Part shown: one piece after another, positions 32,477 through 58,952 of the stretch | How positions within the stretch are numbered: the stretch's first letter is position 1 | How the letters are laid out: the number at the start of each line of letters is the position of its first letter | NCBI GenBank assembly: GCA_963802965.1 | Contig: CAWDKS010000003.1 | Span: forward strand, 274,813 to 338,812 | DNA: 64,000 nucleotides | From: an uncultured Verrucomicrobiae bacterium | Lineage (GTDB): Bacteria > Verrucomicrobiota > Verrucomicrobiia > Limisphaerales > UBA11358 | Direction: 5' to 3' | Program-made: the position numbers and the translations under genes | The notes under the pieces: generated by a model | The model's database searches: none | The model's input: the letters and a program-made list of their open reading frames with translations, nothing else | What the model was told of the DNA's origin: nothing

Positions 32477-32515
32477 TGGGATGCAACGTTTGTCGCGCGG
32501 GCACGGAACTGACGG

Positions 32516-36168: not shown

Positions 36169-36420
36169 GTTGACTGGAATCGAAAGCGTGTTGCGTAACC
36201 TGAAGCCTGTGCTGATGAGCAACGTATCTGTGTTAGTCAGCACACGATTTTCGCTGACTAGCACACCTTCTTTGCTGGTGAGCAAAACGTCCATGCTAAT
36301 CATCACAAGCCTCATGCCAACCAACAAAATTTCTGTGCTGACGAACATAAGGCTTATGCTGACGAACACAAGGTTTGTGCTAACGAACATAACAAAAATG
36401 TCAGTCAGAAAATGGCCGAT
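36169..36420. repeat. tandem array, 12 units of exactly 21 bp (consensus GCTGACGAACAnAAGGnTTnT), AT-rich
   Basis: Unit starts fall at 36169, 36190, 36211 ... 36400 with no indels. The array is covered by open frames on both strands (36170-36472 + and 36127-36483 -). Confidence 0.85.
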
Positions 36421-36637
36421 TTTGGCCGGAAACAAGGCCGTTTTGGAGAGAAAATTCGCCGGAACACCCTGAAAAACAAGCATTTAACCACGAATGTGAA
36501 ATATAGGCATGATTTCTTTGAAAGAATGATGATCCCTGGCGCGTAATAATGTTGTCCGACCGATTCAGAAGTTTAACCAGGACCACGTATGACAAAACCA
36601 CTAACGGCACTCATTTTAGTCTCAACACTGATTCTGG

Positions 36638-36815
36638 CTACGCCAATTTCTTCGCGATGTGCTCGTCCAGAATTTCCTGCACGGTCAGGGCAACGATGAC
36701 TTTATGACTGCGCTTGAAAAATGATTCGATTTCCTGCAACGCATCCGAAGAATAATCGAAGGATACGAAAAATCCCTTTTCGCAATCCTCGCGCATCATC
36801 ATGGCTTCAAAGGCG
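36638..36815 (-). pseudogene. C-terminal remnant of a beta-class DNA methyltransferase
   Basis: ...FEAMMMREDCEKGFFVSFDYSSDALQEIESFFKRSHKVIVALTVQEILDE resembles the C-terminal domain found after many N4/N6 MTase cores. There is no MTase core upstream of it. Confidence 0.5.
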
Positions 36816-38057: not shown

Positions 38058-38935
38058 CAGGTTGAAAGCAGAGCTTTGAGAACATTCTCAACTTCGCTTT
38101 TGATACGAGGCGAGAAACGAGTGAAGAAGTCTGCCAAATCGTAACCGACAATTTCGCGGCAAAAAGAATAAGCGCTGGTGGTTGTTGAATCAGAAAGATT
38201 GCCGGTTAGAAGAACCCAAAGATTTTCGCGGTAACGCTGTGCGACATCACCATCAATTTGCGTCGAGAACAAAAGTAGAACAGGAACGTATAAATTCGCA
38301 TATGCTTTGGAGGCGTTAGCAATGTCTGCGTTCTGACGCTTGGAATCCTTGCTTTTGTAACCTTGCCGCGTTTCAAAGACGATTCCCTTGATATTTTTCA
38401 GCGTGTCGGCAGGAAGTCGAATTTGATTTGCAACTTCAACGAGCCAATTTTGAACTTTGGCGCGGGCTTCGGCGTTTTTCACGTCGTTGAGCGCCACCCT
38501 GCCATCAAGCGTCAACGTGCGTTGTTTGCCACGTGCGCCGTCAATTTTGTAACTCCAAATTGCCTGTTCTCGGTTTAGACCGAAATGGTCCTGCAACATT
38601 TGATAAAATACCCACTGTCCACCAATTCCGATTTGCCGATAAATTGATGTCATTCCACCTGCCGCCTTGTGTGCCGCATACATCAGCGGCGAATCAACTC
38701 CGAACCAATGATAAAATGGGTCGGCACTATACAGTGCAGTAAATTGTTCCAATGAGAACCCTTCTTTTCGTCCCTTTCCGAACCTAGGTTTATATTCCAG
38801 GCATTTGCGAAGAGCAGTTTGAATCAGCAGAAAATAACGCTCGTCCTTTGAAAGATTTGAGGGCAATGGCGGTGGCGGGCCTGCATTCTCTTCGAGAACG
38901 TCCAGTTCGGATGTAATTTCGTGTTCGTCGTTCAA
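38057..38935 (-). CDS. putative type II restriction endonuclease partner
   Basis: 292 aa, coupled to the MTase with its stop overlapping the MTase ATG at 38057. The family is not identifiable by eye. The call rests on position and on composition shared with the MTase. Confidence 0.5.
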   Translation of the reverse strand: MNDEHEITSELDVLEENAGPPPPLPSNLSKDERYFLLIQTALRKCLEYKPRFGKGRKEGFSLEQFTALYSADPFYHWFGVDSPLMYAAHKAAGGMTSIYRQIGIGGQWVFYQMLQDHFGLNREQAIWSYKIDGARGKQRTLTLDGRVALNDVKNAEARAKVQNWLVEVANQIRLPADTLKNIKGIVFETRQGYKSKDSKRQNADIANASKAYANLYVPVLLLFSTQIDGDVAQRYRENLWVLLTGNLSDSTTTSAYSFCREIVGYDLADFFTRFSPRIKSEVENVLKALLST

Positions 38936-38980
38936 GCGTTTTTTTGCCGTTCAATTCAGGCGCATTGATTTTTAACAGAT

Positions 38981-39451
38981 TTACGTCATCGGCACGAGAG
39001 CGTTTTGAAAATTATTTTCTCCGAAAATCTGGTCGAGCATGACCTTGACGTAGTCGCTGGCGTGCCAGTCACAGTGGTGATAAAAGCTGCCGGTCTTTTT
39101 GAGGACGCGGGCCAGTTGCACGCAGCGCGGGCGCATGTAGTCAATATAGGCGCGGGTGGATTCGTGGCGGTCTTCAAAGGCGCGCTTCTCCTTGGTCTCG
39201 CCCCAAAAGACCTCGTAGTTGCGGTTGGAGTTGAAGGGCGGGTCAATGTAAATCAAATCCACGCAGGCGTCGGGCAGCTTGGCGAGCTGTTCCAGATTGT
39301 CGCCGCAATAAACGACGCGGGTGTCGAGGAGGCTGCTGGCGCGTAGCGGCGTTGGTGACAACGCGGATTCTTTGGCGTCGGCGTTGGGTTTCCGCGCCTT
39401 CACAGGCGCGGCTACGGTCGCGGAAGATTTCGCAGCGGCCTTTTTTGCCAT
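38981..39451 (-). pseudogene. N-terminal fragment of a beta-class DNA methyltransferase
   Basis: From MAKKAAAKSS. Contains VDLIYIDPPFNSNRNY (motif IV first) and LDQIFGENNFQN, then diverges (ALVPMT-stop) where NEIIW-type sequence and motif I should follow. Confidence 0.7.
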
Positions 39452-39655
39452 GCGGGGAGAATAATAGTTTTCAACCAGCTTGCAAGTTCGCGTCGCTGCC
39501 AATTGTTTTGCCTTTGATCAGGGACGGCGACACGCCGTCCCTCCCATTGAGCTTGCTGTCGCCCCGGCCGGGGCTTGATTTTTTTAATCGCACAAACCCA
39601 CGGTTTTACCGTGGGCTACCATCGGTCGCTGCTCCGCAGCTACAAATGGATGGCC

Positions 39656-42600
39656 CTAAAAACTCAACTGCAGGCTCACGGCCAGGGTGCGCGAGCGCGG
39701 AAGTTCGTTGTAAAGGTTGAGCGGGTTCAAACTGTAATTTTGACCGGCGATGTTGAGCAGGCCGAGCGTGAATTCAGCTTTTCGATGCAGGAAACGGTAA
39801 CCGGCAAACGCGTTGAATTGCCAGAAGTCAGCGCCCGGTTCACCGGGGGGAGTATAGCCGCTGTTGTTTTGACCATACCAATTGGCCTCTCCCCGGGCAA
39901 AGAAACCGCAGGGATGATTGTAAACCGCCGACAAACCCAATTCCTGTAAAACCCCCTTCATCCGCTGACTTGGAATTATCGGATTACTGATGGGTGGTGG
40001 ACTGACCGGCACATCGGGAAAATTGTCATTCAAAACCGCCTGGCTAATGAGATAGCGCGCGCCGAGCGACCAGTCCCGGCCCAGCAACTGGTTGGCGGTG
40101 AACAGCAGCGATTTTTCCTGGTAATCCAAATTCTCGCGCAGTCCTTGCGGAATGGGATCGTCAAACCCGTCGGGATAATAATTGAAGACGCCGTCAACCC
40201 GGTTCACGGTGGAGTTCAATATCTCGCCGGACAGGCCCAGATAAGTCCCGGTGCTGAATTTTTGCTCCAGCGAAAGGTCGTAGGTTTCAAATTTGGCCCC
40301 GGCATTGTCCCCGGCGATGGATTCAGGGATGATGCTGCGGAAGGATTGGACAAAGCCCGCCACCTGCGAAGGTTCCAGTTGATAGCTTTGGTCCACGCTC
40401 GCGCCGGCCAACGAGCGCGTGTAGGCAAAACGGACGGTGGTTTTGTCCAGCGGCGTCCAAATCAGGCCGGCTTTGGGCGAAACCTGATCCGCCGGCGTGT
40501 CGTTCCCGGAAATGGGCGCGCTCCGAAAATTTTCCGGGTAGGTGATATGGTCATAAGTCACACCGCCAATCAATTGCAACGGCTCGAAAATCCGCCATTG
40601 ATGATAGCCATAAAAACTGACGCGCTTGAACAGGGTAGTGAAGTCCTGTTCCGGCGGAGGATCCAGGAAATCAGCGGTGACGGGGACAGGATTGGCCTGT
40701 AAAACCGAAGTGTCAAAATGACCATACTGGATACGCGCGCCGACAATGGTATTGTGGACCGGCCCCTCCCAAATCTGCTGCAGTTCTCCCGAATAAATAT
40801 CCAACCTGTTCCAATAAAGTTCACTCGCCGTAATATTCTGCGCAGACTCGAAGGTGCTTAAAGTGGGGACGCCGATGAAATTGTTCGGAAAGACTTGAAA
40901 CAGGGAAGGCTGCGCGAAGTTGTTGAACGAACCAGTGTCGTTGAGACGGGCCGCAAAAAACAAAGTGTGGACCCCGGGACTCCATTCATGATGATAGCCA
41001 AGGCTTACAATTGGAGTTTGATTTTCCTTTGCGCGAAAAGTCGGGCTGGCCAGGCTTTGGTCGTAGTATTGGGACAGGTCTCCGCTTTCCGCCTCGTATT
41101 GCTGGACATTCACATAAACACTGTCCTGCGGCGTAAGCTGTTGCTTGACCGTCAGGAAAAATCGCCGCTGATAAATGTCGTCGTTCGGGCGCTGGCCCGG
41201 GTCGGAATGATAGGAGGCCTCAAAGTCATAGCTGAAATTCCCGAACGTCCCGAACTGCGCACCCGACTGGGTCCAGGCCCCGCGGCTGAGATATTCCGTG
41301 TCCGAAGCGACCCCAAAGCGATTGCGTGTGAACAACGGGGAATATTCCTGCTGTGAGATGGTGGGCGAGAACATGCCGGCGCTCACCGGGGCCAGCAAAT
41401 TGGCCAGCAGATATTCAGTCTCGGCGGGGGTTTCATAACGGAGATTAATCTCGTTCGGATCAACCAGTTCATGATAGCTGTCCGCCAGAAAATGATGCGC
41501 GGAGTAATTCGCGTAATCGTCATTCACCGCCCGGGAGGCCTCGCGCACGGCCACGTCATTCATGCCCGCGTCCCGATACATCGCCGCCAGATTCGCGCTG
41601 CGCACCGCCTGGTCCTGGTCCAGCAGCAGTTGCGAGCGATAGACGCTCCGGTTGTCATTCAATGACTGCGATTTTTCCAAATCGCGGATGGCGTCGTTGA
41701 TCCGGTTGTTTTCCTGGTTGAGCAGGGCGGAATAAAGCCACGGCGTCGGGTCATTGGGATCCAATTTTTCCGCGAGCTGGAATTCCCTGGCGGCGCGCGG
41801 AAAATCGCCCGCATCCGCATAAGCCTTGCCCAGATAGCTTCGCAACCCGGCGCGCTGCGGCTCGAGCGCCGCGGCCACCAGCAGGTCTTCGCGTCCGCCC
41901 CGGGCGTCGCCGCGGCGGATGCGGCACAGACCGCGACCCAGCCACGCGTTGCCGAGGGCGGAGTCCACGGCGAGCGCCTGGTCGAACCAGCCGATGGCTT
42001 CGCCGGCGCGATTTTGCGCCGCGAGCAGGAATCCCTTCAACGCGAGCGCCTGGGCATTGCGCGGCGCAAGGGCGAGGCTTTTGTCCAGGGCGTCGAGCGC
42101 CCGGTCGTTATGACCGAAACTAAATTCCAATTCCGCCACCCGCTCCCGGGCAAAACCGAAATCCGGCGAGTTGGTCGCGGCCTGCCGGGCGGAATCCAGC
42201 GCGGCCGGCAATGAAACTCCGGGGATGGCGCGCGATTGTTCGTAATAGGAGTCCGCCAGGAATTCCGCGGCCAGTTGTGGACGGACCGCCGCCGGGGCCG
42301 GCTGCCGCTTCACGGCGGCGATGAGCCGGCGCAGGGACAGGGCAATCCGTTGCGGACGGCTGGAGGCATTGGTGACGGACAAGGAAGCCAGCACCGTTTC
42401 GGCCGGTTCAACCTGTCCGACACCGAGAAGCAGGCCGGCATAATAAACCCGCTCCGCGTCGGAGCCGGGCTGCCGCCCGACCGGATATTGGGCCAGCGCC
42501 ACCGGCAGATCGCCCGCGCGGTAAGCCCGGAGGGATTCGCCGAGGATTTTTTGTTCTTCCGGTGTGAACGGCAAATCGTTCGGATCAATCACCGCCGGAT

Positions 42601-43279
42601 AGTAAAAGCACCATTGCAGGACGTTGTTGGCAATGAAACCCGCGGTGCGAACGGGCACTTTGCCCGGCTCGACGACGGCTTGCTGGCCGTTGGTCAGCAG
42701 CAGCGCGGCCTGTTCGTTGCCAAACCGGACCTTGCCGTCAATCACGGACATCGTGCTGCGCCAAGCGTCATCCGCCAGGACGAATTCCGTGCCCTCCACC
42801 CCGGCAATGGCGCCGCGGGTGATGACCCGGATGCGTCCCGGTTCGTCACGATGAAAAAACGAGAGGATGCCCCGGAACAAATGCAGTCCGCATTGCGCAT
42901 CGAATGAATCCGGCGGCAGCACTTCGACCTCCGTCAAAGCGCCGAAGGACACCACGCTCCGATCCGACCAGAGGAATGCAATCCGGCTGTTGGCGCCGGT
43001 GTGCAACCGGTCGAACGGATGCAGGATTTGGCCGGTTTGCGCGGGCGCCCAGATGGTGGCACCGCCGGGAGCGATCTCCGCCGTGCCTTGCAGTTCCACA
43101 ATCCGGATTTCGTTCGTGGCCGCGCCGCCGGCCATCGGCTGCGCACAACATACCCCGGCGCAAGCGAGCAAACCCCAAACAGTTGCGGTCGCCAAAAGAC
43201 CGCGTCCGGCTTTAAGAAACAAGTTCAAGCGTTTTAATCCCTTCACGCGTCTGAGTGATGAACGTGATGAGATAAGCAT
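39656..43279 (-). CDS. secreted FecR-domain / TPR / C-terminal beta-barrel (outer-membrane-like) protein
   Basis: 1207 aa. Signal peptide, then a FecR-like region (VELQGTAEI...GVEGTEFVL...VIDGKVRF) and TPR repeats at aa ~390-590. A long region with alternating beta pattern follows and ends ...RTLAVSLQLSF. Confidence 0.75.
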   Translation of the reverse strand: MLISSRSSLRRVKGLKRLNLFLKAGRGLLATATVWGLLACAGVCCAQPMAGGAATNEIRIVELQGTAEIAPGGATIWAPAQTGQILHPFDRLHTGANSRIAFLWSDRSVVSFGALTEVEVLPPDSFDAQCGLHLFRGILSFFHRDEPGRIRVITRGAIAGVEGTEFVLADDAWRSTMSVIDGKVRFGNEQAALLLTNGQQAVVEPGKVPVRTAGFIANNVLQWCFYYPAVIDPNDLPFTPEEQKILGESLRAYRAGDLPVALAQYPVGRQPGSDAERVYYAGLLLGVGQVEPAETVLASLSVTNASSRPQRIALSLRRLIAAVKRQPAPAAVRPQLAAEFLADSYYEQSRAIPGVSLPAALDSARQAATNSPDFGFARERVAELEFSFGHNDRALDALDKSLALAPRNAQALALKGFLLAAQNRAGEAIGWFDQALAVDSALGNAWLGRGLCRIRRGDARGGREDLLVAAALEPQRAGLRSYLGKAYADAGDFPRAAREFQLAEKLDPNDPTPWLYSALLNQENNRINDAIRDLEKSQSLNDNRSVYRSQLLLDQDQAVRSANLAAMYRDAGMNDVAVREASRAVNDDYANYSAHHFLADSYHELVDPNEINLRYETPAETEYLLANLLAPVSAGMFSPTISQQEYSPLFTRNRFGVASDTEYLSRGAWTQSGAQFGTFGNFSYDFEASYHSDPGQRPNDDIYQRRFFLTVKQQLTPQDSVYVNVQQYEAESGDLSQYYDQSLASPTFRAKENQTPIVSLGYHHEWSPGVHTLFFAARLNDTGSFNNFAQPSLFQVFPNNFIGVPTLSTFESAQNITASELYWNRLDIYSGELQQIWEGPVHNTIVGARIQYGHFDTSVLQANPVPVTADFLDPPPEQDFTTLFKRVSFYGYHQWRIFEPLQLIGGVTYDHITYPENFRSAPISGNDTPADQVSPKAGLIWTPLDKTTVRFAYTRSLAGASVDQSYQLEPSQVAGFVQSFRSIIPESIAGDNAGAKFETYDLSLEQKFSTGTYLGLSGEILNSTVNRVDGVFNYYPDGFDDPIPQGLRENLDYQEKSLLFTANQLLGRDWSLGARYLISQAVLNDNFPDVPVSPPPISNPIIPSQRMKGVLQELGLSAVYNHPCGFFARGEANWYGQNNSGYTPPGEPGADFWQFNAFAGYRFLHRKAEFTLGLLNIAGQNYSLNPLNLYNELPRSRTLAVSLQLSF

Positions 43280-43361
43280 GTAACACCTTTTCCTTCAACC
43301 TTTTTCGGGGTAGCGGTGTATTTTATTGTCAAAAGCAACAACAAACCTCATTACTTGTCTG

Positions 43362-43991
43362 ATGGGACAGACGATGGATGAACTGATTCCGACGCGCGCA
43401 ACTCTGATTCAACGCCTCAAAGACTGGCAGGATCAGTCCAGTTGGCAGGTTTTTTTTGAGACCTATTGGAAGCTCATCTACAACGTCGCCATCAAGGGCG
43501 GCTTGACCGCGGCCGAGGCGCAGGATGTTGTCCAGGAAACGATGATCTCGGTCGCCAAGCACATGCCCGCCTTCAAATATGACCCGGCGATTGGCTCTTT
43601 CAAGACGTGGCTCTTGAACATGACCCGCTGGCGGATCACGGACCAGCTCCGCAAGCGCGGGCCTTTCGCCGCCGGCCATTCATCATTCGAAGACACCGCC
43701 ACCGGCACCCGCACGGTGGACAAAGTGGCGGATCCGAGCGGGAGGGATTTGGACGCGTTGTGGGACGCTGAATGGGAAAAGAACCTGTATGATGCCGCCA
43801 TTGCCAAAGTCAAACGCGAGCTTGACCCGCAAAAATTTCAAATCTTCGACTTGTATGTGAACAAAGGATGGTCAACCGAAAAGGTGGCCGCCACCTTCGG
43901 CATTTCGGTTGACCAGGTTTATCTGGCCAAACACCGGACAATGGATTTGATCAAACAGGAAATCAAAAGACTGGAGAAAGAGGTCAACTGA
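43362..43991 (+). CDS. ECF-type RNA polymerase sigma-70 factor
   Basis: ATG at 43362. Contains AEAQDVVQETMISVAKHMPAF, FKTWLLNMTRWRITDQLRKR and WSTEKVAATFGISVDQVYLAKHR. Divergent from the FecR-barrel gene. Confidence 0.8.
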   Translation: MGQTMDELIPTRATLIQRLKDWQDQSSWQVFFETYWKLIYNVAIKGGLTAAEAQDVVQETMISVAKHMPAFKYDPAIGSFKTWLLNMTRWRITDQLRKRGPFAAGHSSFEDTATGTRTVDKVADPSGRDLDALWDAEWEKNLYDAAIAKVKRELDPQKFQIFDLYVNKGWSTEKVAATFGISVDQVYLAKHRTMDLIKQEIKRLEKEVN

Positions 43992-44079
43992 CCGGTGGCA
44001 GCAGCGGGTTGCAAGGCCGCAGTTTGCCAGCCCGGCCGAATCATTCCCGCCCCGGCCGGGAATTCCCTTCGGATTTTTC

Positions 44080-45651
44080 TCAAACGGCGAGTTTCAAATG
44101 CGTGAGGCGGAAGACGGCGCCCTTCGGCTCATTCGCCAGACATTCGATTTCCCAGCCGTGCGCGAGGACGATTTGCTGGACGACGGCCAGACCCAGGCCG
44201 GTGCCTTTTTCGTTGGTGGTGAAATACGGCTTGAAAATTTCCTGGCGGCGCCCGGGCGGCACGCCGGGGCCATTGTCGCGGATTTCGAGCGACGCCTCGG
44301 CGGCGCTGACGTGCCGCGCCAGAATTTGAATCTGTCCGCCCGCGTCCACCGCCTGGATGGCGTTGAGCAACAGGTTGAACAAAACCTGGCGCAACAACTG
44401 GTCGTCGGCCTCGATGGCGACGGGTTCGCCGCCGGTCTCCACGCGCAGTTTCTTTTCCTCGATGTCGTGGGTCAGCGTGCGCACCACCTCGTTCACGGCG
44501 GCGATGAGCGCGATTTTCGAGCGGCGGACTTCGCGCGGACGGGAGTAATTGATGAACTCGTTCAACTGCGCGGTGACCTTGTCGGTTTGGTCCACGATGG
44601 CGCGCGATTTTTCGCCAATCTCCGGCGGCGTGCCGGTTTGTTTGGAAATCATCTGGGCCATGCCGCGGATGATGTTGAGCGGATTGCGGGTCTCGTGCGC
44701 GAGGCCGGCGGCCGCCAGGTTCATTTCCCGGAGGTGCGAATTCATTTCACTGGCGCGGACGAGGCGGATCTGCAGTTGCGCGGTTTGGGAAAGGTTGCGC
44801 ATCGCCAGCCCCGCGCCGATCGCGGAAACGCCCGCGAAAAAGATGATGACGAAGCGCAGCCAGAGATCGTGGAGATTGACCGCCTGCAAGGACACCGTGG
44901 AAAGCGTAAGCACCAAGCCGTGCAATTCCCGGCTGGCCACCATGTCCTGATATTGCTTGTCGTCGAGATCGCGCGCCCAGAACGGACGGCGCGGCCGCGG
45001 CCCGCCCTCGCGCGGCTGGTCGGGACGTTCGCCCGGCGGCGGCGGTGGCCCGGCTTGGTCGGCGGCGGCATTCGTGTCCAAAGCATTGGCCGTGGTTGCG
45101 TTCAACACGTTCGACGTTCCCATCTCGCCGGGCCGGGGTTCGTGGCGCGGAAAATTTCTGAAGCCGCCGCGCATCGAGTTGGTGCGCGGCTCCAGAATCA
45201 ATGGCGCCTGCGAGTTGGTATTGCCCTCCGGGTTCAGGAATGCGCCTTCGACCGAATAAACCCGGGTCATGCTGCGCAAACCCCAATGCTCGCCGGCCTG
45301 AAGAATGTCTTTTTGCTCCAGATCAACCGGCCGGCCGGCGGAGGCGACCGGTTCACCGGCGGCGTTCAGCAACGTGATGGAAATCACCTCGCCCGCCGCC
45401 GCGCCGTTCGTGTCGCCGGCGACGAGTTCGCCCAGGACCGGTTCCAGCCGGTCGCGAAAGACCGCGCCGCGGAATTGCAGCCCGCGCACGACGGCGCCGA
45501 GCGTGTTGGCGATGGCCTCGGAACGTTTCCGCAAATCGGTCCTGGCGGCCTCGCGGACGCGGACGTGCTCCTCGACCTGCCACGCGACGACGAGCACCCA
45601 GACCCCCAGCAGAAGGCCGTAAATCAAGGTGCTGTTTCGTCTGGGTTGCAT
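44080..45651 (-). CDS. sensor histidine kinase (NtrB/AtoS-type H box)
   Basis: Two TM segments flank a periplasmic region. H box AAAGLAHETRNPLNII, followed by the N, G1 and G2 boxes (LLLNAIQA, DNGPGV, GTGLGL). Confidence 0.9.
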   Translation of the reverse strand: MQPRRNSTLIYGLLLGVWVLVVAWQVEEHVRVREAARTDLRKRSEAIANTLGAVVRGLQFRGAVFRDRLEPVLGELVAGDTNGAAAGEVISITLLNAAGEPVASAGRPVDLEQKDILQAGEHWGLRSMTRVYSVEGAFLNPEGNTNSQAPLILEPRTNSMRGGFRNFPRHEPRPGEMGTSNVLNATTANALDTNAAADQAGPPPPPGERPDQPREGGPRPRRPFWARDLDDKQYQDMVASRELHGLVLTLSTVSLQAVNLHDLWLRFVIIFFAGVSAIGAGLAMRNLSQTAQLQIRLVRASEMNSHLREMNLAAAGLAHETRNPLNIIRGMAQMISKQTGTPPEIGEKSRAIVDQTDKVTAQLNEFINYSRPREVRRSKIALIAAVNEVVRTLTHDIEEKKLRVETGGEPVAIEADDQLLRQVLFNLLLNAIQAVDAGGQIQILARHVSAAEASLEIRDNGPGVPPGRRQEIFKPYFTTNEKGTGLGLAVVQQIVLAHGWEIECLANEPKGAVFRLTHLKLAV

Positions 45652-45700: not shown

Positions 45701-47011
45701 CTATTGTTTTTTCACCGGCACGCGTTCCAGGAAACGATCCAGCTCCTGCTCCGGAATTGAATTGGTGATGAGCGGCGCTTGGCCGGTTTCATTCGCGGTC
45801 AACGCGGCGAGCTGCGACGGCATCTGGACAATGTGCGGCGTGATGAACATCAGCAACTCGTCCTTCTGGTTCGAGTGGTTGCTGAACTTGAAAAGGTTGC
45901 CGAGTACCGGAATGTCGCCCAGCAGCGGGATTTTGCTCTCGCTTGTGGACTTGTCATTGGAAATGAGGCCGCCGATGACGACGGTCTGGCCGTCGGGCGT
46001 CACGACCACGGTGTTGGCGGAACGTTTGTTGAGATTCGGCGCAAACACGGCGGATGAAATCAAGCTGCCGCCTTGAATCACCTGGCCGGGCGTCGAGGTG
46101 TCAATGGACGTGATTTGCGGCTGGAGAATCATTTGCACCAGATTGTTCGCCCCGATGAACGGCGTGACGTCCAGTTGGATGCCGACGTTCTGATAGGTCC
46201 CGTTGATTTCCGGAACGGTGGCGGTGGTGCCGCCGACACTGGTTAAAGTGACACTGCTGGGCAGATAGATGCTTTGGCCGACGACAATCTCCGCCATCTG
46301 GCCGTCGCGCGCGAGAATGGACGGGCGCGACAGCACTTGCGCCTTGCCGGCGGTGGCGATGGCCTGGAGCGTCGCCGTGAAATCGTTGCCCATGATTTGA
46401 TATATCCCGCCATTCCCGGCCGCTCCCGTCAGGGTCTGGGGCAAATTGAAGTTGTTGTTCAAAGTGTAACTCTGGTTGACCGGGGTATAGCCCGAGGGAC
46501 CAATCGAGCCGGGAGTAGTGGCAGGAGTGGTAGAAGGATAATACATGTAATTGGTCAAATAGCCGGTGACCTGCGAAAAGTTTTTGCTGAAACCGGTGTA
46601 ATTGCCCTGAACCCCGAGGTCGAGCGCCTTGTTGTCATTCACTTCGAGGAAGACGGCCTTGATGAGCACCTGCGGTTCGGGCGCGTCGAGGCTGGCGAGC
46701 ACCAGGCGGATTTGCTCGCTGGTCTGCTTGTCGGCGATGACCATGATGTTGTGCGTCACCGGGTCCACGGAAATGATCGCGCTGCCCACCGTGCCGTTGT
46801 TGTTGTATTGGCCGCTGCCGCTGGTCGTGGCGCCGCGGTTTGCGTTGTTAAACGCGCCGCCGCCGCCGAACCCGCCAAAGCCGCCAAACCCGCCGAAGCC
46901 ACCACCACCACCGCCGCCGCCGGGACGGAATTGCGCATGGAGATTAAACGCGGCGCACAACAGAAAAATCAGAACGCCACCGAGATATTTTTGGAAACGA
47001 TTTGTTTTCAT
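45701..47011 (-). CDS. secretin C-domain protein (GspD/PilQ core) with its own signal peptide and Gly-rich N-terminus
   Basis: MKTNRFQKYLGGVLIFLLCAAFNLHAQ followed by FRPGGGGGGGGFGGFGGFGG. The secretin core is SRPSILARDGQMAEIVVGQ...IPLLGDIPVLGNLFKFS...ELLMFITPHIV. Confidence 0.85.
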   Translation of the reverse strand: MKTNRFQKYLGGVLIFLLCAAFNLHAQFRPGGGGGGGGFGGFGGFGGFGGGGAFNNANRGATTSGSGQYNNNGTVGSAIISVDPVTHNIMVIADKQTSEQIRLVLASLDAPEPQVLIKAVFLEVNDNKALDLGVQGNYTGFSKNFSQVTGYLTNYMYYPSTTPATTPGSIGPSGYTPVNQSYTLNNNFNLPQTLTGAAGNGGIYQIMGNDFTATLQAIATAGKAQVLSRPSILARDGQMAEIVVGQSIYLPSSVTLTSVGGTTATVPEINGTYQNVGIQLDVTPFIGANNLVQMILQPQITSIDTSTPGQVIQGGSLISSAVFAPNLNKRSANTVVVTPDGQTVVIGGLISNDKSTSESKIPLLGDIPVLGNLFKFSNHSNQKDELLMFITPHIVQMPSQLAALTANETGQAPLITNSIPEQELDRFLERVPVKKQ

Positions 47012-47044
47012 AATTTGCCCTTTCATTAAAAAATTCATCACGTC

Positions 47045-48478
<1,434 letters not shown>

Positions 48479-48512
48479 TTTAATTCCTGTTCTCTTAGTT
48501 GCATGAGCTTTT

Positions 48513-49070
48513 TCAAAACGTCGTTGGGTTCGACGGCGCGGAGCCGGCGTCGGAGTTGGAACCGTCAACCGCGGGTGCGGCGCTTTCCGCCGTGCCCGCG
48601 GGCAATTCACCCCGCCCGGCCGGCTGCCATTCGTTTCCCTCCTGCCGCATCATGTCGCCGATCTTCATCTGCACCGTTTGTTTTTTGCCGGCGCTTTCCA
48701 GTTTGACCCCGGCGAGCGTGATTTCGGCCACCGTGTAGCCGGCGATGCCGTTGGTGTCCGATTGATAAAGCACCTTCCGCAGATCGGGATTGTTCCCGTC
48801 AAAAAACGCGAACATCCCCTTTTCGTAGCTCATCGTGCCGACCAGCGTGAACGCCGGCGCCGAGCGCGACACCCGCGGCCGATAGGCTGACCCGGTTGAC
48901 GACGAGCGCGGATAGCGGCTCGGATCAAATATGTTGCGCTCGGTGATGAACCGGCTGAAGGCCGGATAAGCCGCCGGGCCGGGCACGCCGTTCGATTGCG
49001 CGCCGGCGGAGAGGCCGTTCACCAGCGCGAGTGCCAGGACCAGCCATTTTTTAGGGTGCGTCGGTTTCAT
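48513..49070 (-). CDS. periplasmic T2SS accessory protein (GspC/PilP-like position)
   Basis: MKPTHPKKWLVLALALVNGLSAGAQ signal peptide. ATGA overlap with the upstream gene. The call is by operon position only. Confidence 0.5.
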   Translation of the reverse strand: MKPTHPKKWLVLALALVNGLSAGAQSNGVPGPAAYPAFSRFITERNIFDPSRYPRSSSTGSAYRPRVSRSAPAFTLVGTMSYEKGMFAFFDGNNPDLRKVLYQSDTNGIAGYTVAEITLAGVKLESAGKKQTVQMKIGDMMRQEGNEWQPAGRGELPAGTAESAAPAVDGSNSDAGSAPSNPTTF

Positions 49071-49603
49071 GGTTTCGTTTGCGGGATGAGCACCAGCCCG
49101 CTGATTTGCAGGCCGAGCGTGAGTTGCTGGCCGGTGTTGTCGTGCGCGCTCAACTCGACCGAATCGAGCTTCAACGCCGCCGGTCCTTTCTCGATGTTGT
49201 AAAGGAACTGGCTCAAGTTGCCGAGGTTGCCGGATGCCTCGACGCGGCAGTTGAGCGTCATGTAATTGGTCGAGTCGTTTTTCCACTGCGGCATGATGCT
49301 GCTGATGTCGGCCCCGGTGTCGCGCGACCAGTTGTCGAACGCCTTGAACACCTGCTGCTCGGCCAGCGACGTGTTGCCCGGCAGCGCGTTTATGCTCATT
49401 TCGCTCCAGCGGCTGCGGAGGCCCGCCTCGCGCTGGATCAAAAGTTTTCCTTCGCCGACCTTCGCGCGCAATTGCTTGATCTGCGCCGAGCGCGCCGACC
49501 ATAAATTGGCCAGCGGTTCGCCGATGAAATTGACGCCGACGAACAGCGCCGCCGCCCCGATGGTCAGCGCCACCAAAAACTGCTGGCGATTTTTAATTTT
49601 CAT
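49067..49603 (-). CDS. GspM/PilO-like bitopic protein
   Basis: MKIKNRQQFLVALTIGAAALFVGVNFI TM helix, then a coiled-coil and a ferredoxin-like tail. The ORF extends to 49633. Confidence 0.55.
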   Translation of the reverse strand: MKIKNRQQFLVALTIGAAALFVGVNFIGEPLANLWSARSAQIKQLRAKVGEGKLLIQREAGLRSRWSEMSINALPGNTSLAEQQVFKAFDNWSRDTGADISSIMPQWKNDSTNYMTLNCRVEASGNLGNLSQFLYNIEKGPAALKLDSVELSAHDNTGQQLTLGLQISGLVLIPQTKP

Positions 49604-51050
49604 TGGCGCCTCCGTTTCCGTATTGGAAATCAAACGTGAACTGCATCGGCGATTTGCCGTGAATCAGATCCACCTTCAAATGGCTTACGCCGTCCGCCGA
49701 CCGCAGCTTTGTGAGCGTCGCCAGCAGCGCCGCGTTGTCCCGCGCGTTGCCGGAGCAGCTCACCGTCTTGTCATTCTGAATTTCGATGGTTTTGGCCGTC
49801 ACGGCGCCGTCTTCGGGAAATGCCAGGGTCAGTTGCCGCAAAATTGCCAGATCGCGGAACGTGTCGTCGAACCACGGGCGGTATTGCTGGATTTGACCCT
49901 GCACGGTCTGAAGCTCCCCGACTTTCGCCGACATGGCCGACCACCGCGAGCGCAGCAGGATGAGTTCAAATTCCTGGAACAGAAACAATCCGCCGACCAG
50001 CGCCACGATGCCGGCGGCAATCGCGCCCGTCGTCCGCAGGCGGCCCGACGAGTATTTGGTGACGAACTGTTCGAGCAGCGTCGGCTTCGGCGGCAAAAAT
50101 TCAAACACCGGCGGTTGTCCCGCCAGCCAGCGCGCCGCCAGGCTGAAGGCCGGTGAAACTGAAGCTGCCGGCGGGAGCTGGACGCCAAATTCGTCCGGCG
50201 AATAGGCCGCGACGATTTCGACGCTCAATCCCATCGGCTCGAACCGCAATTCCATTTCATCCGCGAGCTGCTGCGCGAGCTCGCGCGGGCCAAAAATGCG
50301 GATGCGCTTGACCGTGTCGCGCAGTTCGACCGGCAACTGGCCGAGCGTGATGCGCGCCTCGCGCGCCACCAGGCCGGCCTGGAGATTGCGCCGCCCGGCC
50401 TCGTCTTCGATGGCGCCTTCCAGGCCGCGCAGGGCGGCCACGCCGCCGCCGCAGGTGATTTGCAGCGACACCTGGCTTTCGCCGATGGCGAGCGCGAGCA
50501 CGCCGTTGGAATTTTCCGCCGCCGGCGGCTGCAATGCCGCCAGTCCCAGCGCAAAGCTGGCCGGCTTTAATTTTGCCGCCGCCAAAACCCGTTCCAGCGC
50601 CGCGAGGTGGGCGTTGGGAATGCCCGCCAGCGTCACGTGCTGTTTGCCGCCGGACAGCGGACAGCGCGAATTTGCCAGCAACAGCGTGGCGACGTCACAG
50701 GGAAAACCGCGCTCCGCTTCCATTTGCAGCAGGCTCGCGGCGTCCGCCTCCGGCAGCGGCGGCAATTCCGTGTGCGCCGTCAGCACCCACTTCAGCGGCA
50801 CGCCGAGGACGCAGTGGCGTTCGCGCACACCGGCGGCGTCGAGCTGATTGCGAATCTCGCGTCCAACGAGTTCCGGCGCCGCCGTCAACGGATCAAGCGA
50901 GAGCATCACCGAAAAGGTCTGGTGGAGTTGGAGCGCGCCGTTGGTGCGGCGGAGCACCACGCCTTCCAGCCGGCTGCCGTCCAATGCCAGTCCCAGCACA
51001 CTGGTCAGCCGTTTGCGTCTTCGAAAATTTATTTTCAGCACGTTGTTCAT
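49593..51050 (-). CDS. GspL / PilM-PilN-like assembly protein
   Basis: 485 aa with a cytoplasmic actin-like domain, a single TM (GAIAAGIVALVGGLFLF) and a periplasmic PilN-like tail. Confidence 0.6.
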   Translation of the reverse strand: MNNVLKINFRRRKRLTSVLGLALDGSRLEGVVLRRTNGALQLHQTFSVMLSLDPLTAAPELVGREIRNQLDAAGVRERHCVLGVPLKWVLTAHTELPPLPEADAASLLQMEAERGFPCDVATLLLANSRCPLSGGKQHVTLAGIPNAHLAALERVLAAAKLKPASFALGLAALQPPAAENSNGVLALAIGESQVSLQITCGGGVAALRGLEGAIEDEAGRRNLQAGLVAREARITLGQLPVELRDTVKRIRIFGPRELAQQLADEMELRFEPMGLSVEIVAAYSPDEFGVQLPPAASVSPAFSLAARWLAGQPPVFEFLPPKPTLLEQFVTKYSSGRLRTTGAIAAGIVALVGGLFLFQEFELILLRSRWSAMSAKVGELQTVQGQIQQYRPWFDDTFRDLAILRQLTLAFPEDGAVTAKTIEIQNDKTVSCSGNARDNAALLATLTKLRSADGVSHLKVDLIHGKSPMQFTFDFQYGNGGANEN

Positions 51051-54897: not shown

Positions 54898-56166
54898 TCA
54901 TTTGATGTATTCGCTCATCGAGAGCACCGGCAGCAACATGCCGATGAAAATGGTGCCGATGAACGCAGCGATCAAAAACAGCATCACCGGCTCGGCGAAC
55001 GCCACGGCGGTCTTCAGGTTGCGGTCCAAGTCTCCCTCGGTGACGGCGGCAATGCGCACCAGCTCGCCGTCGAGCTTGCCGCTCTCTTCCGCGACGGAGA
55101 TCATTTCCAGCGTGGAACTGGAGAAAAGCCGTTTGCAATCCGCGAGGCTCTGGCCGAGCCGTCCGCCCTGCTGCACGCGCTCGATGGACTGGCCGACGGC
55201 GTCCACGAGAATCTGGTTGCCGATGGAGCGGCGCGAAACATTCAGGCCTTGCACGAGCGGCACACCGGCGCCGATCAAGGTGCCCAGCATCCGGCAGAAA
55301 CGCGCCATCGCAAACTGCGCGATGAGCGGGCCGACCAGCGGCGTTTTCAAAACGATGCCTTCCCACGTGCGCTTGCCTTTTTCCGAGGCGAACCAGGCGC
55401 GCACGAAAAAGCCGATGGCCACGAAACCCACCAGGACAAACAATCCGTAGGAGCGCACCAGATGGCTGGCGCCGATGATGAGTTGCGTAATCAACGGCAG
55501 CGAACCGTGGAGGCTTACAAAAACCTTCTGAAACCTCGGAATGAAAAATATCAGCAGCACCGTCAGCACGACCAGCGCGAGGCAGAACAGAATGCACGGA
55601 TAAATCATCGCGGTGACGACCTTCGATTTCAGCTCCTTTTCGCGCGACTGAAATTCCGCGATCTGCGCCAGCACCACGTCGAGGAACCCGCCCGCCTCGC
55701 CCGCCTCGACCATCGCCACATAAACCCGCGGAAAAGTGTCCGGCGATTTCCCCATCGCGTCGGCCAGCGACATGCCGTCCACGACGAGGTCGTGGATTTC
55801 CTTCCACTTGGCCTGCGCCGCCGGCGACGAGGCTTCCTTGTGCAGAATCACCAGCGCGCGGCTCAACGGCACGCCCGCCGCGAGCAAACTTGAAAGCAAT
55901 CGCGTGAAGTTTTCCAGTTCCTTCGCCGAAACCTTGTGCGACCCGAACTTGAAGGAAATTTTCCCCAGACCTTCCAGCCCGGCGGGCAGCCCGGCGCCAT
56001 TTTTTGCGATCGAGCCGTTTTTCGCGCCGGCTTTTTCCGCGAGGTTGACCGGACGCAGGCCGAGCGATTCCATTTGCCGCAGCGCGTCGGGGCGGCCGGG
56101 GGCGTCAAGCTGCCCCTCGGCAATCTTGCCGTCGGCCTGCAAACCTTTGTATGAAAACGTGGGCAT
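54898..56166 (-). CDS. gspF: type II secretion system inner-membrane platform protein GspF
   Basis: From MPTFSYKGLQADGK. Two T2SSF repeats (MVEAGEAGGFLD and VAEESGKLDGEL) and three TM segments. Confidence 0.9.
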   Translation of the reverse strand: MPTFSYKGLQADGKIAEGQLDAPGRPDALRQMESLGLRPVNLAEKAGAKNGSIAKNGAGLPAGLEGLGKISFKFGSHKVSAKELENFTRLLSSLLAAGVPLSRALVILHKEASSPAAQAKWKEIHDLVVDGMSLADAMGKSPDTFPRVYVAMVEAGEAGGFLDVVLAQIAEFQSREKELKSKVVTAMIYPCILFCLALVVLTVLLIFFIPRFQKVFVSLHGSLPLITQLIIGASHLVRSYGLFVLVGFVAIGFFVRAWFASEKGKRTWEGIVLKTPLVGPLIAQFAMARFCRMLGTLIGAGVPLVQGLNVSRRSIGNQILVDAVGQSIERVQQGGRLGQSLADCKRLFSSSTLEMISVAEESGKLDGELVRIAAVTEGDLDRNLKTAVAFAEPVMLFLIAAFIGTIFIGMLLPVLSMSEYIK

Positions 56167-56181
56167 TTGAAATTCAGGAAA

Positions 56182-56273
56182 ACATCCAACAACGAACATC
56201 CAACAACGAACATCCAATGCACGGAAAGCCACCGCCATTGGGCGTTGGATGTTGGATGTTGGATGTTGGATGT
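56182..56273. repeat. simple-sequence hairpin (CATCCAA / TTGGATG units) between gspE and gspF
   Basis: acatccaacaacgaacatccaacaacgaacatccaatgc ... gcgttggatgttggatgttggatgttggatgt. Confidence 0.7.
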
Positions 56274-56287: not shown

Positions 56288-58027
56288 TCATCTCGCCGCC
56301 GCAATGCCCGCGGCGGAACCGCCCGTTTGATTTTTGGTCGCGCTCTCGACTTCCTTCGCCGTCGTCACGCTCAAAACCTCCTCGACGGTCGTGATGCCGG
56401 CCGCGACCAGACGCCAGCCGTCCTCGGCGAGCGTGCGCATTCCGGCCTTGCGCGCGGCGGCGCGAATCTGGTCGGTCGAGGCGCTTTTCAAAATCAACTG
56501 GCGGATTTCCTCGTCGGTGTCCATCCATTCAAATATCGCGTGCCGGCCAAAGAAGCCGGTGTTGCGGCACTCGCGGCAGCCGACGGATTTAAAAATCGTT
56601 TTGTCCGCCGCGATGCCCAGTTTCGCCTTGAATGCCTGTGCCGTCGCGGAATTGTCCGGCTGCTTGCAGTGCGGACACAGCACGCGGACGAGCCGTTGCG
56701 CCAGCACGGCTTCGAGCGACGAGGCGACGAGATACGGTTCGACGCCCATGTCCACGAGCCGCGTGAGCGCGCCGGGCGCGTCGTTCGTGTGCAGCGTGGA
56801 AAAAACCAGGTGGCCGGTGAGCGAGGCCTGCACCGCAATCTGCGCGGTCTCGGCGTCGCGGATTTCGCCGATGAGTATCACGTCCGGGTCGTGGCGCAAA
56901 ATCGAGCGCAGCCCGCGCGCGAAGGTGAGGCCGGACTTTTCGTTGACCTGGATCTGGTTCACGCCCTTGAGCTGGTATTCCACCGGGTCTTCCACCGTGA
57001 TGATTTTGCGGACGGCGTCGTTGATCTCGTTCAGCGCGGTGTAGAGGGTGGAAGTTTTGCCACTGCCAGTCGGGCCGGTGACGAGGATGATTCCGTGCGG
57101 CAGACCGAGGACGTGCTGGAAATGATCCAGTTCGCGCCGGTTCATGCCGATTTCGCCGAGACCGCGCAGTGTGGAATTTTGCCGGAGCAGACGCATCACG
57201 ACCGCCTCGCCGTGCAGCATCGGAATCACCGAGACGCGGATGTCCACCTCGGCGTCATCGAGACGAATCTTGATGCGGCCGTCCTGCGGCAGGCGTTTTT
57301 CGGCGATGTTGAGATGGCTCAAAATTTTGACGCGTGAAACGATGGCCGGCTGGAAACGCTTCAATTGCGCGGGAACGGAAACCTCCTGCAACTCGCCGTC
57401 AATGCGGTAGCGGATACGGAATTCGTCCTCGAACGGCTCAAGATGGATGTCCGACGCGCGCAGTTCGATGGCGTCCTTCAAAACCTGGTTGACGAAGCGG
57501 ATGATGGATGCCTCGTCCTCGGCGGCTTCGTCCAGATTGGTGTCCTCGGCGTTGTCATCAACGACTTGAAAACCTTTTTCCTCGTCGAGCGTGCCGATGG
57601 TGTCCGCGCCGACGCCGAGGCGCTTTTTGATTTCGCGCTGGATGGCTTCGCTGGAAGCGAGGACGGGCTTGAGGTTCAAGCCCGTCAACGTTTTGAGCGC
57701 GTCGAGTCCCTGCGTGGCGAAGAGCCGGCTGGTGGCGACCTCCACCATGCCGTTGAGGCGCTTGAGCGGAAGGAGTTCCTCCTTCAGCAAAATGCGCGCG
57801 GGAAAAAGCGAGAGAAGCTGGCGGTCCGGCTCGACGTCGTCCAGCGTCGTGTAAGCAACGCCGTATTCCCTGGCCAGCCAGCGGAGAACCTCCTCCTCAT
57901 TTTGCACGGGCGGACTGGCGCCGGCCAAAGCCGCCGCGTCGGTCGCGGACAATTGCTTGGCGGCGACCATGCGCTCCAGCAACTGCTTCAACGGTGAATC
58001 CTGGAGGGAGGTTTCGCTCATGTTCAA
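56288..58027 (-). CDS. gspE: type II secretion ATPase GspE
   Basis: Walker A GPTGSGKTST, Asp box, Walker B ILIGEIRD, His box, and the tetracysteine CPHC...CRECRNTG. Confidence 0.92.
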   Translation of the reverse strand: MNMSETSLQDSPLKQLLERMVAAKQLSATDAAALAGASPPVQNEEEVLRWLAREYGVAYTTLDDVEPDRQLLSLFPARILLKEELLPLKRLNGMVEVATSRLFATQGLDALKTLTGLNLKPVLASSEAIQREIKKRLGVGADTIGTLDEEKGFQVVDDNAEDTNLDEAAEDEASIIRFVNQVLKDAIELRASDIHLEPFEDEFRIRYRIDGELQEVSVPAQLKRFQPAIVSRVKILSHLNIAEKRLPQDGRIKIRLDDAEVDIRVSVIPMLHGEAVVMRLLRQNSTLRGLGEIGMNRRELDHFQHVLGLPHGIILVTGPTGSGKTSTLYTALNEINDAVRKIITVEDPVEYQLKGVNQIQVNEKSGLTFARGLRSILRHDPDVILIGEIRDAETAQIAVQASLTGHLVFSTLHTNDAPGALTRLVDMGVEPYLVASSLEAVLAQRLVRVLCPHCKQPDNSATAQAFKAKLGIAADKTIFKSVGCRECRNTGFFGRHAIFEWMDTDEEIRQLILKSASTDQIRAAARKAGMRTLAEDGWRLVAAGITTVEEVLSVTTAKEVESATKNQTGGSAAGIAAAR

Positions 58028-58059: not shown

Positions 58060-58614
58060 TTACGGGAGCAATCCCAGCAAAGTGGCCTGGGCTTCCTGTT
58101 TCACGGTCAGCACCTTGCGAAGGTCTTCCTGCGCCTGGACCAGCTTGGCCTGTTTGGCCTTCTGCGAGGCCTCATATTTCGCCAGCGCGTCCTTGATCTG
58201 CGCGGCGGGTGCGTTGGCATCAATCGCATTTTGCAGGGACTCGGCCTCGGGGCTGGGTGTCTGGCCAAATCCGCCGCGGCCGCCACCAGGCCCGCCATTG
58301 CCGCCGCGGTTGCGGCCGAACATGCGGCCCATTCCGCCGCCGAAACCGACATCGCGGCGCGCGTCCGTCACTTTTTGAATCAGCGGCTGGACGGCGTTCC
58401 AGTCGGTGTCGTTGGTATAGCCGAGTTGATCCCGGATGTTGTCCATCATGCGTTGCTGGAACTGGGCGGGGTCAAAATTCCCGCGGCCGGGGCGTCCTCC
58501 GCCTCCGCCTCCGCCTCCATTTCCGCCGTTGTCATTTTGCGCGGAGACAGTGCCGGCGCCCAACATCAGGGCGGCGGCGACCCCGCAGATTGTTAACAGT
58601 TGATTCACTTTCAT
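58060..58614 (-). CDS. periplasmic Gly-rich protein with Spy/CpxP-like LTXXQ motif
   Basis: MKVNQLLTICGVAAALMLGAGTVSAQ signal peptide, NGGNGGGGGGGGRPGRG and VLTVKQEAQATLLGLL. It is the first gene behind the sigma-54 promoter. Confidence 0.55.
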   Translation of the reverse strand: MKVNQLLTICGVAAALMLGAGTVSAQNDNGGNGGGGGGGGRPGRGNFDPAQFQQRMMDNIRDQLGYTNDTDWNAVQPLIQKVTDARRDVGFGGGMGRMFGRNRGGNGGPGGGRGGFGQTPSPEAESLQNAIDANAPAAQIKDALAKYEASQKAKQAKLVQAQEDLRKVLTVKQEAQATLLGLLP

Positions 58615-58708
58615 CGAACATTCTCCTCTCGTGGATGGTTTGTTTTTGGTTTTCGTTTTCATCGGTGGACGGCACGTCATGCCGCCCGTCAATGGCAGGT
58701 TGTGCCGT

Positions 58709-58724
58709 TGCAAAGAACGTGCCA
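58709..58724 (-). promoter_or_regulatory. sigma-54 (-24/-12) promoter
   Basis: The minus strand reads TGGCAC-GTTCT-TTGCA, a full match to TGGCAC-N5-TTGCW. It lies ~95 nt upstream of the ATG at 58614. Confidence 0.7.
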
Positions 58725-58952
58725 GCGTGATAATTCAGCTATTTCCCAATGAAACGGTCGGGCCCGCTGCGCAATTGCTGCTCAACCCGCCGGACGCAGC
58801 GCAGATTTTGCGCGCCTGCGGGAGGTGATCTGAAAATTCAGGCAGCGATATGATCTGGTTGCAGCGGCGGTCCGTGACCGCCGCCACGGCAAACATTCTG
58901 AAGCCGCGCCACTGCCGATTTGCGTTGCCACGCGCGGGCGGCGGTTTAGAGT

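Follow-up and report, generated by a model that had tools for sequence, protein, structure and literature searches.

The DNA analysed here is a stretch of 64,000 nucleotides (the window) of contig CAWDKS010000003.1, which derives from an uncultured soil or peat Verrucomicrobiae bacterium of the order Limisphaerales. Within it, a 350-bp intergenic region between two diverging genes holds a minus-strand sequence with the form of a sigma-54 core promoter. The site faces a string of minus-strand genes, running from 58614 to 44080, that encodes a type II secretion system (T2SS) and ends in a sensor histidine kinase, and a response regulator of the NtrC family is encoded in the same window at 31351-29951. 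Taken together, these features and their conservation in related species support a model in which a functional sigma-54 (RpoN) promoter probably controls the complete T2SS operon via a dedicated two-component system.

Results

A sigma-54 consensus site upstream of the operon

The core promoter occupies 58709..58724 on the minus strand (TGGCACGTTCTTTGCA) and was read directly from the DNA as a -24 element, TGGCAC, followed by a -12 element, TTGCA. A first-pass annotation of the window had read the same letters, TGGCAC GTTCT TTGCA, at this place and had described the GG and GC elements as exactly spaced, and our scans bear this out. The GG and GC dinucleotides lie exactly 10 bp apart, the extended consensus TGGCACG-N4-TTGCW is matched in full, and neither strand of the 64-kb window contains a second exact match to it. 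Shuffles of the window that preserve dinucleotide counts gave a mean of 0.04 exact matches, with one match in 4 of 100 shuffles. The earlier claim that other TGGCAC hexamers lack the TTGC element holds as well: a search of the window for TGGCAC-N5-TTGC with up to two mismatches found no further TGGCAC hexamer with a correctly spaced TTGC, and the few sites with one mismatch lie within or antisense to coding regions.

The site has the same orientation as the gene that begins at ATG 58614, and the 3' end of the core motif is 95 nt from that ATG, as the first-pass annotation had estimated. When the C of the GC element (58710) is taken as -12, standard sigma-54 geometry places the predicted transcription start at 58698 on the minus strand. 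Transcription would thus start near 58698 and give a leader of about 84 nt, and a GGAG Shine-Dalgarno sequence precedes the ATG. A TTG start at 58713 for the same gene was considered and is spurious, since the homologs all begin at the MK... of ATG 58614. A simple scan of the intergenic region upstream of this ATG found no minus-strand sigma-70-like promoter.

A position weight matrix (PWM) built from 63 other species of the clade, with the window left out, gives the site 22.8 bits. The runner-up in the window scores 14.0 bits with the same matrix, and the maximum over 20 shuffled windows is 17.8. That runner-up, at 36321 on the minus strand, was tried as a second sigma-54 promoter and rejected, because it has GT in place of GC and its score falls inside the range of the shuffles. 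The PWM scan and the near-match search yielded no other credible candidate for a sigma-54 promoter in the window.

Conservation of the site in related species

A scan with GspE, restricted to one genome per species, returned 80 loci with a GspE identity of 80-93%. Most of the records have titles that name Verrucomicrobia subdivision 3, Limisphaerales or Verrucomicrobiia; Pedosphaera parvula Ellin514 accounts for one, and about 10 are metagenome-assembled genomes titled as other phyla. The promoter alignment comprises 64 sequences, namely the window and the 63 species that have at least 400 nt upstream of the ortholog of the first operon gene, here called X. Counts and frequencies for the promoter region below refer to these 64 sequences.

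Every one of them carries the GG-N10-GC motif with at most three mismatches, 60-130 nt before the ATG of the X ortholog. The motif has at most two mismatches in 53 sequences, at most one in 25 and none in 10. As a control, three bins of equal width farther upstream contain the motif in 0, 2 and 0 sequences, and the opposite strand contains it, anywhere, in 5. Columns that were not used to select the motif are also nearly invariant: the T of TGG (T0) is present in 98%, A4 in 98% and T12, before the GC, in 100%, and positions +3 and +5 are C or T. Around the motif, the columns of the anchored alignment carry only about 0-0.3 bits, that is, the flanking DNA is unconserved. Protein X is only 44-86% identical over the same loci, which implies that neutral sites are well diverged.

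Two classical variants of the core, TGGCACGTTCCTTGCA and TGGTATGTGAATTGCA, alternate between species. This alternation fits selection on the contacts made by sigma-54, and simple inheritance of one sequence would not give it. The leaders in the relatives are 39-97 nt long. A cultured relative, Pedosphaera parvula Ellin514 (L063), is among the species with the module. The sigma-54 promoter is almost certainly real and conserved across dozens of related species.

Paired palindromes upstream of the -24 element

Among the 7-mers that precede the -24 element, the most frequent ones are built around the hexamer TGCGCA, which is its own reverse complement. They map as two 17-bp palindromes of the form TGCGCA-N5-TGCGCA, which start at fixed offsets from the T of TGG, about -90 for the distal and about -59 for the proximal one. 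In the window, the putative proximal enhancer palindrome lies at 58768..58784 on the minus strand (TGAGCAGCAATTGCGCA, centre about -78) and has one mismatch to this form, and the putative distal palindrome lies at 58798..58814, also on the minus strand (CGCGCAAAATCTGCGCT, centre about -108).

At a threshold of two mismatches, the proximal palindrome is found in 49 of the 64 sequences at offsets of -65..-55 from the T of the -24 element, and the distal one in 55 at -96..-86. Both are present in 43 sequences at this threshold and in 56 when three mismatches are allowed, as against 0-2 sequences in each of eleven control bins. The spacing from centre to centre is 29-33 bp with a mode of 30, so that the palindromes are three helical turns apart and would present themselves on the same face of the DNA. 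The first-pass annotation had suggested that inverted repeats for an enhancer-binding protein be sought at 58780-58950. A conserved pair of such repeats does exist, nearer to the promoter than was proposed, at 44-90 bp upstream of the -24 element.

Elsewhere in the window, TGCGCA-N5-TGCGCA is matched no more often than chance would give, and the activator gene has no copy upstream. The palindromes therefore carry weight only because their position is conserved across the clade. Beyond the distal palindrome, the upstream sequences are mostly unrelated between loci. Because the upstream DNA is unrelated among most loci, and because the divergent gene on the other side of the intergenic region is shared only with L003, we assign the promoter and the enhancer to the T2SS operon.

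Between the enhancer and the -24 element, the spacer (58725..58767, minus strand) contains T, A and T tracts about 10 bp apart, at approximately -28, -18 and -8 from TGG. As a separate observation, these tracts before TGG are conserved in position in the 64-sequence alignment, about one helical turn from each other. By column frequency in the anchored alignment, 70-84% of the sequences have the T-tract at -9..-6.

The sensor kinase and the activator

The last operon gene in the window (44080..45651, minus strand) encodes a sensor histidine kinase. Pfam matches and the translation show a first transmembrane segment, a periplasmic region of about 240 amino acids, a second transmembrane segment, and HisKA and HATPase_c domains. 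The best NCBIfam matches of the kinase core are AtoS and then ZraS, both below their cut-offs (158 vs 479 for ZraS). AtoS and ZraS are kinases that pair with sigma-54 activators. The first-pass annotation had described the protein as NtrB-like, which we reject: the NtrB model NF008293 gives 83 bits against a cut-off of 240, and two transmembrane segments flank the periplasmic region, as in a membrane sensor with an AtoS/ZraS-like core.

The activator gene (29951..31351, minus strand) encodes a sigma-54 enhancer-binding response regulator, in which a receiver domain (REC) is followed by an AAA+ domain with an intact GAFTGA loop and by HTH_8. Its Pfam matches are Response_reg (6.8e-30), Sigma54_activat (2.7e-68), AAA_lid_14 and HTH_8. 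The first-pass annotation had placed an NtrC-type enhancer-binding protein here, and the domain order agrees with membership in the NtrC family. The protein is not an NtrC equivalog: its best NCBIfam matches, AtoC, ZraR and NtrC, are all below the equivalog cut-offs (413 vs 760 for ZraR, and 404 vs 559 for the NtrC model TIGR01818). An assignment of the kinase and activator as NtrB/NtrC, AtoS/AtoC or ZraS/ZraR equivalogs was accordingly rejected.

No other GAFTGA protein is encoded in the 64-kb window. Across the clade, homologs of the activator are 84-96% identical, and the helix-turn-helix (HTH) region is nearly invariant in 120 homologs. The loop that contacts sigma-54 reads GAFTGA in 89 of these 120 close homologs, GSFTGA in 14 and GAFTDA in 17. 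A search of the flanks within +/-6 kb of L001-L080 found no enhancer-binding protein.

Gene order in relatives and an insertion in the window

In relatives, five independent genomic contexts show an ortholog of the activator (88-96% identical) as the last gene of the T2SS operon, right after the kinase. The gene order there is ...gspH-I-J-K, then genes for proteins of 484-485 aa, 177 aa and about 200-244 aa, the N-terminal and C-terminal parts of the secretin, the kinase and the activator. Kinase and activator genes are 18 nt apart in L081-L086 (contexts L081-L083 and L084-L086), 155 nt apart in L090 and 186 nt apart in L087, where the activator shares 96% identity with that of the window. In L088 and L089 the gap is about 1.45 kb and holds an inserted fragment of a DDE transposase. 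L090 and L003 form one 35.7-kb contig, on which an identical core promoter is followed in an unbroken series by the genes for X, the Gsp proteins, the kinase and the activator.

In the window, the kinase and activator genes are separated by a block (31399..44079) that is absent at the equivalent position in relatives, as shown by blastn against L090 and L087. The breakpoints are at 44080, the stop of the kinase gene, and at 31398, 47 nt before the open reading frame of the activator, with 12,681 nt between them. The block contains an ECF sigma gene (43326-43991), a gene for a 1207-aa FecR/TPR/TonB-barrel-like protein (43279-39656), two pieces of DNA methylase genes in a stretch of low GC content (47-51% GC, 36816-39502), a gene for an Ig-domain protein, a CHASE2 Ser/Thr kinase gene (34522-32516) and a gene for a single-domain response regulator (32015-32476). 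The transposase fragment at the same junction in L088 and L089 suggests that the kinase-activator junction is prone to insertions.

Since the ortholog directly follows the operon kinase in relatives, the activator of the window is best understood as the cognate regulator, displaced here by insertion. Its pairing with the promoter is well supported. Read from these gene orders, the ancestral unit is a putatively autoregulated operon that ends in its own two-component system.

The operon behind the promoter

The minus-strand genes from 58614 to 44080 are separated by gaps of at most 49 nt or overlap, over 14.5 kb. The first-pass annotation had the extent, the T2SS content and the terminal kinase of this operon right; its count of 12 genes before the kinase needs correction to 13, which makes 14 genes in all. 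The promoter directly faces the gene for a small secreted protein, X, and not a Gsp gene. Gene X (58060..58614, minus strand) encodes a Gly-rich helical protein of 184 aa, with a Sec signal peptide that was read from the translation, and lies directly before gspE. The X ortholog is immediately upstream of gspE in 79 of the 80 loci, and the remaining locus has no upstream sequence.

By its profile matches the string is a T2SS operon. The ATPase gene gspE (56288..58021, minus strand) matches Pfam T2SSE at 1.2e-138 and also MshEN, and gspF (54898..56238, minus strand) matches T2SSF at 1.4e-56. The pseudopilin genes gspG, H, I, J and K follow on the same strand (54884-54378, 54377-53781, 53806-53300, 53300-52503 and 52513-51047), with matches to T2SSG, GspH, T2SSI, T2SSJ, T2SSK and N_methyl. 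Three genes for assembly-platform-like proteins (48513..51050, minus strand) have weak NCBIfam/Pfam matches, to GspL for the 485-aa protein, to PilO/GspM for the 188-aa protein and to GspC for the protein of about 185 aa, as equivalents of L, M and C. Genes of the same sizes stand in the same order in the relatives. A prepilin peptidase gene was not found in the operon.

The GspD secretin is encoded as two genes (45701..48610, minus strand). The first, from 48610 or 48516 to 47045, encodes an N0 and two Secretin_N domains, which cover GspD profile positions 1-292, and a Gly-rich tail, and ends in a TAG stop at 47047-47045. The second, from about 47011 to 45701, has its own signal peptide (MKTNRFQKYLGGVLIFLLCAAFNLHAQ) and the Secretin domain, and covers profile positions 279-600. 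Relatives also have a two-gene secretin, with proteins of 422-493 aa and 410-432 aa, so the split is not a sequencing error.

Intergenic gaps include 38 nt between X and gspE and 49 nt after gspE. No terminator-like hairpin was found between X and gspE, and in the interior of the operon sigma-70-like and terminator-like sites are no commoner than in shuffles. From this arrangement we infer that all 14 genes are co-transcribed.

Protein X, the leader and the divergent gene

In every relative, protein X heads the operon. Its signal peptide is accompanied by a poly-Gly tract, two helices, a Gly/Arg loop of the GGMGRMFGRNRGG type and, at the C-terminus, a long helix pair that ends in LTVKQEAQ (LTVKQ motif). 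It has more than 3,500 metagenome homologs, and some JGI records label homologs as Spy/CpxP family. Searches of Pfam (E up to 10), NCBIfam and the PDB, by sequence and profile, gave nothing significant. An AlphaFold2 model has a pLDDT (predicted local distance difference test) score of 58, and its best Foldseek match in the PDB has an E of 0.58, with weak matches to STV, CnrX, Spy and CpxP. In hhalign comparisons with Spy, CpxP and ZraP sequences, the probability was at most 1.8%. None of these sequence, profile or fold comparisons supports membership of X in the ZraP/Spy/CpxP family, towards which only some of the JGI labels and the LTVKQ motif point, and this idea stays a lead.

The predicted 5' leader (58615..58697, minus strand) begins with a 5'-proximal hairpin at 58694..58660, which is followed by an A/C-rich tract and the Shine-Dalgarno sequence. 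The minimum free energy of the whole leader is -24.2 kcal/mol (z = -2.3). In the 64 sequences, the first 45 nt past the predicted start form hairpins of differing sequence, with a mean z of -2.0 and z < -2 in 32. An Rfam search of the leader and the intergenic region returned sub-threshold noise only and no family. The hairpin may be a 5' stabiliser or a regulatory stem.

The divergent plus-strand gene starts at 58953 or 58965. Its product, 292-296 aa long, carries a signal peptide and belongs to no known family. The only sigma-70-like site of the intergenic region (TTGCCA-16-TAGAGT, ending at 58952; 58925-58965, plus strand) goes with this gene and leaves almost no leader before an ATG at either position. 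Of the 80 loci, L003, the closest relative, is the only one in which the gene is conserved.

Discussion

A model for control of the T2SS operon

The model that we consider likely is as follows. RNA polymerase with sigma-54 would bind TGGCAC-N5-TTGCA (58724-58709) as a closed complex. The membrane histidine kinase (45651-44080) would sense a periplasmic or envelope signal and would phosphorylate the NtrC-family activator encoded at 31351-29951. Dimers of the activator are predicted to bind the two TGCGCA-N5-TGCGCA palindromes at about -78 and -108, on the same face of the DNA. The activator would then form its ATPase ring and remodel the closed complex across the short, probably bent, A/T-tract spacer, in which the phased A/T tracts may form an intrinsic bend that stands in for IHF at such a short distance between enhancer and promoter. 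The transcript from about 58698 would run through X, gspE-K, the L/M/C-like genes, the two-part secretin and the kinase. In the majority of relatives this transcript would extend over the activator gene as well, so that the system would activate its own sensor and, there, its own regulator.

Several observations weigh against this model. In the window, the activator gene lies 12.7 kb from the kinase; it must have its own promoter, and the ancestral feedback on the regulator would be broken here. The window taken alone has 6 palindrome matches with up to two mismatches, where 10 are expected, which is not significant by itself. The enhancer centres at -78 and -108 are nearer to the promoter than the sites of glnAp2, and a search of the promoter region for the IHF consensus (WATCAANNNNTTR) found none between the palindromes and the promoter. 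GAFTDA replaces GAFTGA in 17 of the 120 activator homologs, and a six-frame search for an RpoN box in the window and all 90 fetched loci found none. Indirect pointers to an rpoN gene in the genome are the conserved GAFTGA activator and the sigma-54 regulons that have been predicted in Verrucomicrobiota (PMC12316311). An important caveat is also that the start site and the extent of the operon rest on inference from sequence.

Alternative explanations

The core match might be a chance or relic sequence that has no promoter function, and the exact matches in 4 of 100 shuffles of the 64-kb window are what such a reading can point to. Chance is excluded by the position of the motif, which is kept in 64 of 64 sequences with unconserved flanks, together with a clade PWM score far above that of the shuffles. 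The conserved enhancer palindromes at a fixed distance and the cognate GAFTGA activator linked to the operon likewise argue for function, and we regard this explanation as extremely improbable. Another question is which protein activates the promoter. A different enhancer-binding protein, encoded elsewhere, could do so while the activator at 31351-29951 serves other targets. The distance of its gene from the operon in the window agrees with this, as does the lack of a palindrome copy upstream of the activator gene itself, and several enhancer-binding proteins are usual in bacteria of this type (Francke et al. 2011, PMC3162934). However, in every relative examined the ortholog stands right after the operon kinase, either 18-186 nt away or with the transposase fragment alone in between. 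The activator HTH and the palindromes are both strongly conserved over the same clade, and the window encodes no second GAFTGA protein. Activation by another protein thus appears improbable to us.

Sigma-54 control might also stop short of the secretion machinery, if the promoter mainly serves X and most transcription of the gsp genes comes from promoters that are internal or constitutive. There are many sigma-54 promoters with one small, abundant gene as their target, for example pilA under PilR, zraP, pspA and glnA. The case of zraP has been described in the literature (PMC4987338). The gaps of 38 nt (X-gspE) and 49 nt (after gspE) leave some room for such promoters, and a simple scan is blind to unusual types of sigma-70 promoter in Verrucomicrobia. 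Against this, no terminator-like hairpin separates X from gspE, and the two genes are adjacent in 79 of 80 loci. The 14 genes share one strand and either overlap or are no more than 49 nt apart, and internal sigma-70-like sites are no commoner than in shuffles. In the relatives, moreover, the kinase-activator pair stands at the far end of the same string of genes, which suggests one regulatory unit. We therefore give a promoter that serves mainly X little credence and favour sigma-54 control of the whole T2SS operon.

Comparison with known systems

As a switch, the promoter is unexceptional: its kind is well known, and it reveals no new mechanism. In Escherichia coli glnAp2, two NtrC sites are centred at -140 and -108, with the 17-bp box TGCACCAnnnTGGTGCA (PMC5159524, PMC8743547). 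Both promoters combine a -24/-12 core with two 17-bp dyads that have outer TGC...GCA triplets and are about three helical turns apart (32 bp in glnAp2, 30 bp here), and the IHF consensus is found in neither. Both also have a regulator of the type REC-AAA+-Fis-type HTH with a cognate kinase and autoregulated regulator genes, here, putatively, in the ancestral arrangement. The box itself differs, being TGCGCA-N5-TGCGCA here and TGCACCA-N3-TGGTGCA there, and the sites in the window are about 30 bp closer to the promoter. The kinase here is a membrane protein with a periplasmic domain, whereas NtrB is cytoplasmic, and the target is a secretion system instead of nitrogen assimilation.

PilS-PilR controls the type IV pilin gene pilA via sigma-54 in Pseudomonas, Myxococcus and Geobacter, and an RpoN2-PilRX system is reported to exist in Xanthomonas. 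As here, a sensor kinase and an NtrC-family activator act with a sigma-54 promoter before genes of the type IV filament superfamily, which includes the T2SS. However, those systems target only the pilin gene, next to which their regulators are usually encoded. In the window, a whole T2SS (ATPase, platform, pseudopilins and secretin) lies behind the promoter, and the first gene encodes no pilin.

In Enterobacteria, ZraR drives the sigma-54 promoters of zraSR and zraP, and ZraP, a small periplasmic chaperone, acts in addition as a repressor of the system (PMC4987338). The ZraPSR system of E. coli and Salmonella shares with the window a membrane sensor kinase, an NtrC-family activator and sigma-54 promoters, including that of a gene for a small Gly-rich periplasmic protein as well as those of the system's own genes. 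ZraS and ZraR are the second-best NCBIfam matches here, after AtoS and AtoC, and the first gene of the operon encodes a small Gly-rich periplasmic helical protein. On the other hand, the equivalog cut-offs are far from reached (158/479 for ZraS, 413/760 for ZraR), X and the kinase are separated by twelve T2SS genes, and there is one promoter with one operon where the Zra system has divergent promoters.

This likeness raises the possibility that the T2SS operon is part of a Zra/Cpx-like three-part envelope-stress circuit, with X as a distant CpxP/Spy/ZraP-type accessory that would feed back on the periplasmic domain of the kinase. We consider this unlikely. If it were true, periplasmic load or secretion stress would tune T2SS expression via sigma-54, and a self-sensing secretion system would be conserved across Verrucomicrobia subdivision 3.

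Implications

To our knowledge, there is hardly any experimental knowledge of how genes are regulated in Verrucomicrobia subdivision 3 (the Limisphaerales / Pedosphaera group), whose members are abundant in soil, peat and lakes. Sigma-54 control of the type III and type VI secretion systems has been described, and a link between sigma-54 and the cell exterior has long been noted (PMC3162934). Sigma-54 promoters predicted with a position-specific scoring matrix (PSSM) at T2SS genes have been reported to be enriched in Myxococcia and, to a lesser degree, in Polyangia and Planctomycetia, and sigma-54 regulons have been predicted in Verrucomicrobiota (PLoS One 2025, PMC12316311). A PSSM match upstream of T2SS genes is the same type of inference as ours, and sigma-54 control of the T2SS has thus already been proposed in other phyla. 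The passages of that study consulted here treat, for Verrucomicrobiota, class Opitutia only, and they describe no link to the T2SS there, nor the enhancer or the operon-embedded kinase-activator pair found in the window and its relatives; the case made here, in contrast, rests on cross-species footprinting and not on a single PSSM match.

The locus presents a complete, testable regulatory unit, with a core promoter, two predicted activator sites that have a consensus, a dedicated kinase-activator pair and a full T2SS as its output. A search for the TGCGCA-N5-TGCGCA box could uncover the remaining members of the activator's regulon. If the model is correct, the link between sigma-54 and the cell exterior would extend to a whole T2SS in a new phylum.

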